Source: Planctomycetota bacterium
GTDB taxonomy: Bacteria; Planctomycetota; GCA-002687715; DRQF01
DNA length: 31,202 nucleotides
Reading direction: 5' to 3'
NCBI GenBank assembly: GCA_036479435.1
Contig: JAZGFI010000097.1
Coordinates: 1-31,202, forward strand
Part shown: positions 29,119-31,202 of the stretch, piece by piece
Numbering within the stretch: the stretch's first letter is position 1
Layout of the letters: the number at the start of each line of letters is the position of its first letter
Notes under the pieces: model-generated
What the model was told of the DNA's origin: nothing
The model's database searches: none
What the model saw: only the letters and a program-made list of their open reading frames with translations
Program-made: the position numbers and the translations under genes

Positions 29119-30156
29119 ATGGCGGATGGAAGACCCAAGTCGAATAGCCCCTTCGACTCCAAGGAACGCGGTTTTTTGAGCCGCCTCTTTCGGCGTGGGC
29201 ATGTCTTGGAAGCTGGCGACCGCATCACGGGTCGCGGCGTCTACAAGATCAAAAGGGTTATCGGTGAAGGCGGCATGGGCCGCGTCTACTTGGCCGAAAA
29301 GCTTGGGGCCCATGGCTTCTCAAAGCTCATGGCGATCAAGGTCCTGCGCAAGGACCGCATTCGTCACCACTACGATGCTGCCCTGTTTTTTGAAGAAGCT
29401 CGACTAACCGGCAACCTCGTCCACCCCAACATTATCCAGACCTACCAGATGGGTGAGAAGCGCCACTTCTACTTCATCGTGATGGAGCACGTCTTTGGCG
29501 TAACGCTTCTTGAGTTCATCGAGCGCCACGCTGAACTCGGTCGCTCAATACCCATCGGCTACGGGGCGTGGATCATGAATCGCGTGCTGAGCGGTCTTCA
29601 CTACGCCCACAACAAGCACAGTCGCGACGGCGAACATCTCGGCATCGTCCACCGCGACATTTGCCCCAGCAACATCATGATTTCTTTTCGCGGAGTGCCG
29701 AAACTCTTCGACTTTGGTGTCGCGAACTTCACCGACTCCCCCGTCGACGAGAAAGTCGTCAACTTCGGCAAGTATCCCTACATGGCGCCCGAGCAGGTCC
29801 AACGCCGCGGCACCGACGCCCGCTCAGACCTCTACTCCTTAGGCCTCGTCATGTACGAGTGCTTCACCGGCAAGCTCGTTCACGAAGTCGAAAACACCGC
29901 CATGCTGCTCGAAGATTTCGAGCACAAAAACATTGTCCCACCGCACGAGCTCATTCCGGACATCCCCCAGGACTTGTCCGACCTCATCCTCAAAGCCATC
30001 AAACTTGAGCCCGAAAAGCGATTCCGCAGCGCCAAGGTCATGCGCCAAGCTTTGGACAACGTGATGTTCGCCAACTTCCTCTTCCCCGATCCGGACGACT
30101 TCGCCGACTACCTCACGGGCCTTTTCCCCGCCGCCGCCAAGCACCGCTGGTGGTAA
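29119..30156 (+). CDS. Soluble Hanks-type Ser/Thr protein kinase
   Basis: IGEGGMGRVY, AIKVL, HPNIIQ, HRDICPSNI, DFGVA, GKYPYMAPEQ and DLYSLG, with no TM segment. Confidence 0.92.
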   Translation: MADGRPKSNSPFDSKERGFLSRLFRRGHVLEAGDRITGRGVYKIKRVIGEGGMGRVYLAEKLGAHGFSKLMAIKVLRKDRIRHHYDAALFFEEARLTGNLVHPNIIQTYQMGEKRHFYFIVMEHVFGVTLLEFIERHAELGRSIPIGYGAWIMNRVLSGLHYAHNKHSRDGEHLGIVHRDICPSNIMISFRGVPKLFDFGVANFTDSPVDEKVVNFGKYPYMAPEQVQRRGTDARSDLYSLGLVMYECFTGKLVHEVENTAMLLEDFEHKNIVPPHELIPDIPQDLSDLILKAIKLEPEKRFRSAKVMRQALDNVMFANFLFPDPDDFADYLTGLFPAAAKHRWW

Positions 30157-30269: not shown

Positions 30270-30301
30270 AAAAAGGCGCCCGCTGGGAGGCGGACGCCTT
30301 T
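30270..30301 (-). terminator. Intrinsic terminator of the selenoprotein gene (possibly bidirectional)
   Basis: Minus strand AAAGGCGTCCGC-CTCCCA-GCGGGCGCCTTTTT, a GC-rich stem ending in a U-tract about 25 nt after the TAA at 30325, between convergent genes. Confidence 0.7.
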
Positions 30302-30324
30302 AGGTTTTGCGAAGAAAGAGGCGC

Positions 30325-31197
30325 TTACAGTTCTTTTAGAGCGCTTCTTGCTTTGTCTTCGAGGCCGGTGCCCTTCAGCTTGCCCATGAGCCGCGCAAGG
30401 TTGCGCTTTTTCTGGGGGCTGTCGGAGCTAAGGACGTCGTCCAGGGCCTGCGAGGCGGCTTCGACCACAGACTTGGAGGCCGCTTCGATTTGGGCGATCA
30501 AGTCTTTGTGGAGCTTTTGCGAATTCACCTTTTTGAGCGTGGACAGGGCTTTGGCGAAGTCGCCCTTGGCCACGAGCGCTTCTGCGCTGGTCCTCGCACC
30601 GTCAATCTTTTTGACGGTCTTGCGAGCAACACCCTTGCCGTGCTCTTTAACGAGGGTCTTCCGGAAACCAGTAACGGCGTCTTCGATCGCGCCCTTGCTG
30701 CGGTAGCCCTTGCCGAACTCTTTCAGCGTGTGCGGGTTGATGATCGAGGTGTAGGGAATCGAGCCGGTGGTGTTGTACCTTCCGGCCGGACTCGACTGAA
30801 GCGCCTCGATGTCGTCGATCGTGAGGTTAGGCCACTCGACCATGTACTCTTTGTCGTCACCTTTTTTCTTGTAGGTGCCAGCCTTGGCGGCCTTTTTGTC
30901 CATTGCGGCGCGCACGCCACCGATGGACAGGACTTCGACAGTGTTCTTGTTCGCGAACTTGATGTAACCTTTATTCTGCATCACGGCAGAATGCATACCC
31001 CAGCAGGGCGGTCATTTGTAGCCGTGCGAGTGCAGCACGATCGGGACGTTGAGAAGTTTCGCTTCGGCGACGGCCGCATCCCAGCTGGTCGCGAAAGTCA
31101 CCGTTGGTTTCGGCTTGTCGTGTTTTTGGGCGGCGGCGGTGCCCGCGAGCCCACCCAGGGCCACGGCGGCCGCGAGAGCCAAAAAGATTTGACGCAT
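30325..31197 (-). CDS. Exported thioredoxin-fold selenoprotein (UxxC; in-frame TGA at 31012..31014 read as Sec62), 290 aa
   Basis: The ORFs 31012..31197 and 30325..30996 are in the same frame, joined by TGA CCG CCC TGC TGG GGT. Read through, this gives a signal peptide + SWDAAVAEAKLLNVPIVLHSHGYK-U-PPC-WGM and later GSIPYT (cis-Pro loop), a Thioredoxin_7-like pattern. A SECIS-like hairpin follows the TGA. Confidence 0.85.
30973..30992 (-). promoter_or_regulatory. Putative bacterial SECIS element
   Basis: Minus strand ATTCTGC-CGTGAT-GCAGAAT is a perfect 7-bp stem with a 6-nt loop and G at loop position 2. The stem starts after a 19-nt spacer from the in-frame UGA, and the loop starts at nt 27. 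Confidence 0.7.
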
Positions 31198-31202
31198 GTA
31201 GA

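Follow-up and report, generated by a model that had tools for sequence, protein, structure and literature searches.

DsbH, the periplasmic disulfide reductase of Chlamydia (2ju5, NF043050), and the Thioredoxin_7-group proteins DsbD-gamma and AGR2/AGR3 are the closest known systems to a gene that we analyzed on the minus strand of a 31,202-nucleotide (nt) contig (JAZGFI010000097.1, here called the window) from a Planctomycetota bacterium (GCA_036479435.1). The gene is interrupted by an in-frame TGA codon that is probably read as selenocysteine (Sec, U), and its product would be an exported selenoprotein with a thioredoxin fold. Among solved structures, DsbH matches the thioredoxin domain of this protein best. 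DsbH is exported, as is predicted for the protein described here, and in both proteins helix 1 begins with a two-residue redox motif, but DsbH has Cys instead of Sec and lacks the C-terminal helical domain. The likeness is structural only, as the DsbH model NF043050 gave no match with the window protein and matched one of the 63 members of our family alignment (E 8.8e-4).

The only Thioredoxin_7-linked family in published selenoprotein lists is the Trx7/PDZ selenoprotein NF041199, a predicted bacterial selenoprotein (PMC13188914; PMC9312934). Its motif is CxxU and its partner domain PDZ, whereas the family described here has UxxC and a helical domain; NF041199 matched none of the 63 members and no PDZ match was found in Pfam. 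Exported thioredoxin-fold UxxC selenoproteins are also found in the PF13098 thiol:disulfide interchange, DsbA-like, DsbG-like and TlpA/redoxin-like families (PMC13188914), which share with our family a selenocysteine insertion sequence (SECIS) within the open reading frame (ORF), Cys-containing homologues and a presumed periplasmic redox role; a helical C-terminal domain is described for none of them. A single member of the 63 matched PF13098 (E 7e-4), and none matched PF01323, PF08534, PF00578 or NF041057 at E of 0.01 or less. TsoB (NF045694), whose model spans 572 positions, is fused to a rhodanese domain and has the motif UxxxxU, and 17 of the 63 members matched its DsbD-like thioredoxin segment locally around the redox site (best E 4.2e-5); the window protein scored 10.4 bits over 61 residues with this model, against a cut-off of 805. 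Proteins of the YbbN/CnoX type (3qou, 3qdn) have the same domain order, a thioredoxin domain followed by an all-helical tetratricopeptide repeat (TPR) domain, and aligned to our whole model with a Foldseek E of 9.1e-4, but with a TM-score of 0.26 and a root-mean-square deviation (rmsd) of 13. YbbN is cytoplasmic and is not known to have a CxxC pair.

The minus strand of the window from 31197 to 30325 is a single 290-codon frame with the TGA at 31014..31012 as its sole interruption. The initial annotation had placed a 61-residue ORF (31197..31012, minus strand) and a 223-residue ORF (30996..30325, minus strand) in one frame, and we found nothing between them in that frame except this TGA; the two short ORFs are one gene, interrupted by TGA only. 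The read-through product, ...VLHSHGYK-U-PPCWGMHSAVMQN..., is 290 residues long and ends at the TAA at 30327..30325, and the motif around the Sec codon is HSHGYK-U-PPCWGMH. The features of the gene are as follows.

30325..31197, minus strand: whole predicted selenoprotein gene, with ATG at 31197..31195, 290 codons and TAA at 30327..30325
31129..31197, minus strand: predicted Sec-type signal peptide, residues 1-23 (MRQ, hydrophobic core, AAA/QK), from sequence
31012..31014, minus strand: in-frame TGA, putative Sec codon 62, opening the U-P-P-C redox motif (31014..31003), from column comparison and contigs
30973..30992, minus strand: SECIS-like hairpin of type A (A-UUCUGC, loop CGUGAU, GCAGAA-U), +23..+42 from the U of UGA
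30703..31101, minus strand: thioredoxin-fold domain, residues about 33-165, from model, alignment and structural matches
30748..30765, minus strand: cis-Pro loop G145-S-I-P148-Y-T150, within the thioredoxin-fold domain
30328..30702, minus strand: C-terminal six-helix domain, residues 166-290, from the structure model
30277..30292, minus strand: terminator-like hairpin followed by a T-run, 33 nt past the stop codon (one found, against a shuffle mean of 0.3)

We compared the column of the TGA across 83 distinct homologous genes, a set drawn from one genome per GTDB species searched plus the window gene. The column held TGA in 60 genes and Cys (TGC or TGT) in 23, and chance is thereby excluded as the source of the window TGA. 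The occurrence of Cys at this column bears out the proposal in the initial annotation that the TGA takes the first position of a CxxC motif, and Cys in all relatives with TGA in none, the pattern that it had linked to a one-off nonsense mutation, was not what we found. A six-frame search of 41 related genomes gave a match in 16 of them, and 16 of the 17 distinct motif-bearing loci had TGA at the first position of UxxC. The family was present in 45 genomes of an even sample of the phylum (401 genomes), with an in-frame TGA in 44 of 58 match rows. All homologue records titled with a phylum or lower rank were from Planctomycetota (Planctomycetia and Phycisphaerae), and a few say only "bacterium".

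Conservation extends to both sides of the TGA. In the 63-sequence alignment (A1), W39, A42, P52, V54 and H56 are conserved upstream, and C65 (at least 90%), Y78, V87, V89, P148 and P155 downstream; the invariant or near-invariant residues of the thioredoxin domain include H56, H58, U62, C65, W66 and H69. The homologue comparison suggested with the initial annotation thus gave Cys or TGA at column 62 and conservation on both flanks. The residue preceding Sec is Tyr, Lys, Asn, Ser or Thr in many relatives. A search of 5.8 billion proteins recovered 81 relatives: 50 full-length proteins (about 300 residues) with H-x-H-G-x-x-C-x-x-C, 30 C-terminal pieces that start just past the motif (typically MHSAVMQN...), and one of neither kind. 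A library of representatives at 50% identity yielded 144 new identifiers, comprising 62 C-terminal pieces, 20 short N-terminal pieces that stop immediately ahead of the motif, 11 Cys forms of full length, and 51 entries that are other fragments or divergent members. Such recurrent C-terminal and N-terminal pieces are what one expects of a family in which the same stop codon repeatedly splits the gene.

The initial annotation had raised the possibility of a TGC or TGT misread at 31012..31014. Logan contigs from runs of three public studies covered 30985-31105 in two alleles, which differ at 31015, 31045 and 31075 and nowhere in 31012-31014, so that the TGA is kept in both; this check used contigs rather than raw reads, one run may be the source sample, and run X7 covers the stretch partly. 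A loose contig end in one run read as another relative with TGA at the same place. The alleles also differ at 30547-30697 and other positions, and the change at 31015 (T>G) turns Lys61, beside the Sec codon, into Asn.

A hairpin is present at +21..+42 from the UGA, inside the coding sequence, in all 60 TGA genes. We distinguished two classes, type A in 36 genes including that of the window and type B in 22, with a 4-bp form of type B in the remaining two. Type A consists of (A)UUCUGC, a CGUGNU loop and GCAGAA(U), and its stem sequence is common to 35 of the 36 genes; the single variant, UUCCUC/GAGGAA, has two pairs altered on both sides, and the encoded residues are altered too. Type B consists of GCACS, the loop GGUC (or GUUC, GUGC, GGGC) and SGUGC. 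Its fifth pair (25:30) varies between C-G (12 genes), G-C (7) and A-U (3) and is unpaired in two. The type B alignment had 98.3% of its cells paired, compared to 17-58% in slid controls, and none of 500 column shuffles attained the observed covariation score. Neither hairpin was found in 17 of the 23 Cys forms, and four pairs were kept in two.

Codon choice was compared between 10 Cys forms and 25 Sec forms, the latter all taken from the first set of loci. The His after the motif was CAT in 20 of 25 Sec forms, all of them type A, versus CAC in 10 of 10 Cys forms, while the two His codons just upstream of the motif were CAC in 21 and 23 of the 25 Sec forms. Type A Sec forms used TCT for Ser and GCC for Ala without exception (20/20 each), and all Sec forms used GTG for Val (25/25); in the window genome, CAT makes up 31% of His codons and TCT 10% of Ser codons. 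The freezing of synonymous codons in Sec forms only indicates that the constraint acts on the RNA. To recognize a bacterial SECIS, bSECISearch reportedly looks for a stem-loop that follows the UGA at a short distance and has G/U in its apical loop; the loops of all 60 Sec forms read xGU.... The initial annotation had anticipated a downstream SECIS, and a conserved, covarying hairpin of this kind fits a bacterial one. The comparative data strongly support the downstream hairpin as a candidate in-ORF bacterial SECIS.

The machinery for Sec synthesis and insertion is complete in the window genome (92% complete), with selA, selB, selC and selD all recovered, as the initial annotation had proposed to check. 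SelA was identified at 462.9 bits, and selB as a 676-codon frame with a SelB winged-helix domain on contig C237. The selD gene has an in-frame TGA at the canonical GG-U-AAK site and is itself a selenoprotein gene, and the tRNA for Sec (anticodon TCA) lies directly downstream of it on contig C117. The genes selA, selD and tRNA-Sec form one minus-strand cluster (G000, C117:33644-36014, loci L001 and L003), and a hairpin of stem GUCCCA/UGGGAC and loop GGUCU follows the selD UGA. Among the ordinary stops of this genome TGA occurs most often, closing 663 of the 1511 ORFs with 400 or more codons, and many genes of the family themselves terminate in TGA; the codon is therefore not reassigned genome-wide. 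SelA was found in 290 of 401 sampled Planctomycetota genomes, which suggests that Sec use is widespread in the phylum. It was present in each of the 37 sampled genomes that have a Sec form.

We modeled the read-through protein with AlphaFold2 and the family alignment (mean predicted local distance difference test score, pLDDT, 93.5; predicted template modelling score 0.84). The structure prediction proposed with the initial annotation gave a thioredoxin fold followed by a helical domain. The upstream features that it had noted are present, namely a leader with a charged start and a hydrophobic core ending in AAA/QK, and the conserved W39, A42, E45-A46 and P52. The leader helix has low confidence in the model (pLDDT 60-64 over residues 1-20). 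A crude script test for a charged start and a hydrophobic core before the conserved Trp was passed by 57 of the 63 members; of the six misses, three were artefacts of the regular expression and three lacked K/R only. From its sequence, the leader is a predicted Sec-type signal peptide, and the protein is probably exported.

The thioredoxin fold spans residues about 33-165 of the model, with U62 at the N-terminus of the helix 63-73, and shows the beta-alpha-beta...beta-beta-alpha order, the two-residue redox motif opening helix 1 and the cis-Pro loop expected of this fold. GSIPYT forms the cis-Pro loop in the model, and P148 is invariant. These elements and the helical tail had been correctly named in the initial annotation, but its length for the tail (about 90 residues) was too short, the model giving about 125. 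A structural search returned 56 solved chains with Z of at least 8; the 50 listed were almost all thioredoxin-fold proteins. The matches were led by DsbH (2ju5; VIA Z 12.6, rmsd 3.0 with 122 residues aligned; Foldseek E 2.9e-5) and included AGR3 (3ph9; Z 11.2), an exported cytochrome-c-biogenesis thioredoxin (3f9u; Z 11.0) and DsbD-gamma (1uc7; Foldseek E 5.5e-4). A sequence-profile search of the PDB gave nothing significant; AGR2 aligned over the redox site with an E of about 0.3, and the other matches were noise from helical proteins.

Residues 168-289 form six helices, and the helical domain folded alone reached a pLDDT of 94.4. Searched alone, it gave generic helical-repeat or TPR-like matches only and no family (best VIA Z 7.9, which falls under the noise level stated by the tool for helical folds; best Foldseek E 0.31). 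Of the His residues around the redox pair, H56 is the same in every member, and H58 and H69 are each retained in 90% or more of the 63 members. H56 stands six residues ahead of U62, the place taken in E. coli thioredoxin by Asp26, a buried acid/base residue. The redox motif is U-G-P-C in most members and U-P-P-C in the window protein.

The window protein fell under the cut-off of every Pfam and NCBIfam model, in agreement with the statement in the initial annotation that it could not be assigned to a named family. Its score with Thioredoxin_7 (PF13899) was 12.9 bits (E 0.12), compared to a gathering cut-off of 27, while 23 of the 63 members matched this model at E of 0.01 or less (best 1.1e-6). 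We therefore consider the family a distant relative within the Thioredoxin_7 fold group and not a scored member of it. Other model matches among the 63 members were to the DsbD-like part of TsoB (17 members), DsbH (one) and Thioredoxin_2 (one).

Taken as a whole, the locus is best explained as one gene for a 290-residue exported selenoprotein (probability about 0.9), and we are strongly confident, from the comparison of sequences, that the gene is genuinely decoded with Sec at UGA codon 62. The interpretation offered by the initial annotation, an unannotated exported redox selenoprotein, is supported in this form, its export and redox role being predictions. Several observations weigh against it. 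The window hairpin region folded alone was not unusual compared to shuffles (z = -1.36), and the SECIS case consequently rests on the comparative data. Mean folding energy differed little between Sec forms (-8.8 kcal/mol) and Cys forms (-8.0 kcal/mol), and an Rfam scan of 30300-31202 at E of 10 or less returned no SECIS family and only two chance microRNA rows. The window loop, CGUGAU, is unlike the GGUC(U) loop of selD and type B, and four of the 23 Cys forms retain a type-B-like stem, but with other loops; the Cys copy at L068 has the type B stem with the loop GCUC. SelA was also present in 8 of 8 genomes with only Cys forms, so that its presence cannot separate these from genomes with Sec forms. 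The start codon lies only 5 nt from the end of the contig (C97, 31202 nt, the whole window), which places the promoter and the ribosome-binding site outside the assembly, and the public runs listed for this sequence included no RNA run. The Pfam scan of neighbouring genes (93 ORFs at 16 loci) gave no partner conserved across the phylum, and the functional assignment accordingly rests on similarity of fold, with no operon-based function.

We weighed these observations together with other explanations of the locus. Gene callers report exactly the two pieces expected if the locus made a 61-residue secreted peptide and a separate 223-residue protein starting at Met68. The larger piece would then have no signal peptide, and its thioredoxin fold would be missing strand 1 and the first redox residue; moreover, it is always the redox position at which the break occurs, 23 genes encode full-length Cys forms, and Met68 is not universal, the residue at this position being Val, Ile, Ala, Leu or Glu in other members. 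We consider two products extremely improbable. Nothing except the presence of the stop codon speaks for a pseudogene or an assembly error in which a Cys codon suffered a one-off nonsense change, and this is almost certainly wrong: TGA in 60 independent genes across many genera already refutes it, the codon is kept in two alleles in the contigs of three studies, and the frame has no other disruption. Full-length protein without selenium would result if the TGA were read by a near-cognate tRNA (Trp or Cys) or reassigned, and the open and conserved frame across the TGA by itself leaves the inserted residue unspecified. This explanation is nevertheless very improbable, given that TGA is the commonest ordinary stop and also closes many genes of the family, that the column is Cys in 23 homologues and never Trp, that the Sec machinery is complete with a UGA at the known Sec site of selD, and that the constrained hairpin is limited to Sec forms.

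A more serious contender accepts the selenoprotein and disputes its chemistry, proposing a periplasmic handler of metals or metalloids, or an enzyme that reduces peroxides or sulfenic acids, with H56, H58, H69, U62 and C65 as the site. The invariance of H56 and the conservation of H58 and H69 would suit such a site. In addition, no DsbD-type neighbour is conserved beside the gene, and a ZIP transporter and an ArsP-type permease are located near it in locus L051. The metal-related neighbours are, however, confined to this one locus, the best fold matches are all thiol-disulfide reductants, and the U-G-P-C of most members is the thioredoxin motif; H56, at the place of Asp26, may simply serve redox catalysis. 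On balance we regard a metal or peroxide enzyme as unlikely, if well short of negligible.

Under the preferred explanation, a Sec-decoded exported thioredoxin-fold protein, the UGA at codon 62 would be read as Sec, with the hairpin recruiting SelB carrying Sec-tRNA(Sec) that is supplied by the genome's own selA, selD and selC. Cleavage of the signal peptide would leave the mature protein in the periplasm. There, U62-x-x-C65 would act as a selenenylsulfide/selenol-thiol redox couple in a domain resembling those of DsbH, DsbD-gamma and Thioredoxin_7, with Sec as the attacking nucleophile and C65 as the resolving residue, and the six-helix domain would probably bind a partner or substrate. Recharging could occur via a DsbD/CcdA-type membrane electron carrier, one of which appears to be encoded in the genome, where a gene with a DsbD_TM domain is present. 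The similarity of the structure model to thiol-disulfide reductants suggests that the protein may reduce or isomerize disulfides, or reduce other oxidized sulfur species, on exported substrates; we put this function at about even odds.

We built a maximum-likelihood tree of 77 members, dropping six short rows and rooting at the midpoint. The Sec/Cys label changes eight times on this tree, with at least six changes forced by well-supported branches, compared to a mean of 20 for shuffled labels and none of 500 shuffles as low. Under midpoint rooting, the deepest groups are all Sec forms with type B hairpins. The Cys forms branch from within the Sec forms; the window gene groups with Sec forms of type A. 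The tree has no outgroup and gives no direction for the Sec/Cys changes.

Tandem paralogues were seen at several loci, as Sec and Cys pairs (L026, L027/L048, the latter being G212:C4, L066 and L076) and as a Sec and Sec pair (L032/L072, G146); genomes with two copies include one with Sec and Cys copies 7 kb apart, and L046 (G039) is listed among the two-copy loci. The divergent full-length relatives P0068, P0112, P0127 and P0163 are without both redox residues (e.g. ...HAHAWGSAVSWDMH...), and from their sequences look like redox-inactive paralogues. The Sec-form genes L014/L069 and L017/L077 look disrupted, one by a TAA after 115 codons and the other by a break of the frame after about 213 codons, and may be pseudogenes or else reflect misassembly of fragmented metagenome-assembled genomes.

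The neighbours that do recur are common to close relatives only, and consist of a divergent cyclophilin-type isomerase, a Ser/Thr kinase and an S9 peptidase or GH113 gene. In the window, a gene for a 345-residue Ser/Thr protein kinase (29119..30156, plus strand) is convergent with the selenoprotein gene. The same kinase adjoins the gene at L040, L043 and L045, in genomes of the same family, together with a cyclophilin-type isomerase divergent from the gene. L050 (9949-10653, plus strand, G137) has two consecutive ORFs of 96 and 114 codons at a distance of about 1 kb from the family gene; the second matches the AhpC/TSA model over the latter half of the model only, and the pair may be another TGA-split, peroxiredoxin-like selenoprotein. 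At L046 (5336-6418, plus strand, G039), the Sec form is immediately preceded by an AIR-synthase-related gene (SelD/ThiL/HypE-type) and a gene with a CBS domain.

We searched the literature for an earlier account of the family and found no description of it, subscription-only papers being outside the coverage of the search. Table 1 of a 2026 review (PMC13188914) gives a domain identifier for each of 119 families of prokaryotic selenoproteins. No identifier of that table was matched above threshold, the "thioredoxin-like" entries being set apart by their identifiers and not by their sequences, so a loosely defined "thioredoxin-like" entry could conceivably be the same family. A study of Porphyra Planctomycetes (PMC4807772, with its Table S9) lists two "thiol-disulfide isomerase-like thioredoxin" candidates split into two genes and gives no sequences for them. 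The JGI label for members of our family is "hypothetical protein", which suggests that the two candidates lie outside it.

The broadest interpretation is of an undescribed exported family, so far found in Planctomycetota only, in which Sec is usual and possibly ancestral, a DsbH-like domain whose His-rich active site reads H-x-H...U-x-x-C...H is joined to a helical domain, the in-ORF SECIS has two solutions, and the chemistry could exceed disulfide reduction to include metals, metalloids or peroxides. We offer this combination tentatively, at slightly less than even odds. The family is a new and well-populated one of a well-known type, the thioredoxin-fold UxxC selenoproteins with an in-ORF SECIS, and will hold little surprise for selenoprotein specialists. 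Gene callers split it into a "hypothetical protein" of 55-75 residues and another of 220-240 residues in dozens of genomes and metagenomes, and a family model with a Sec exception would mend all of these annotations. It is a well-supported addition to the list of prokaryotic selenoproteins, in a phylum with few described selenoproteins. The 60 Sec and 23 Cys forms, the tandem Sec/Cys paralogues and the two SECIS designs make this family naturally suited to studying what causes Sec to be retained or exchanged, and also to asking in what way a SECIS constrains the protein sequence that overlaps it.

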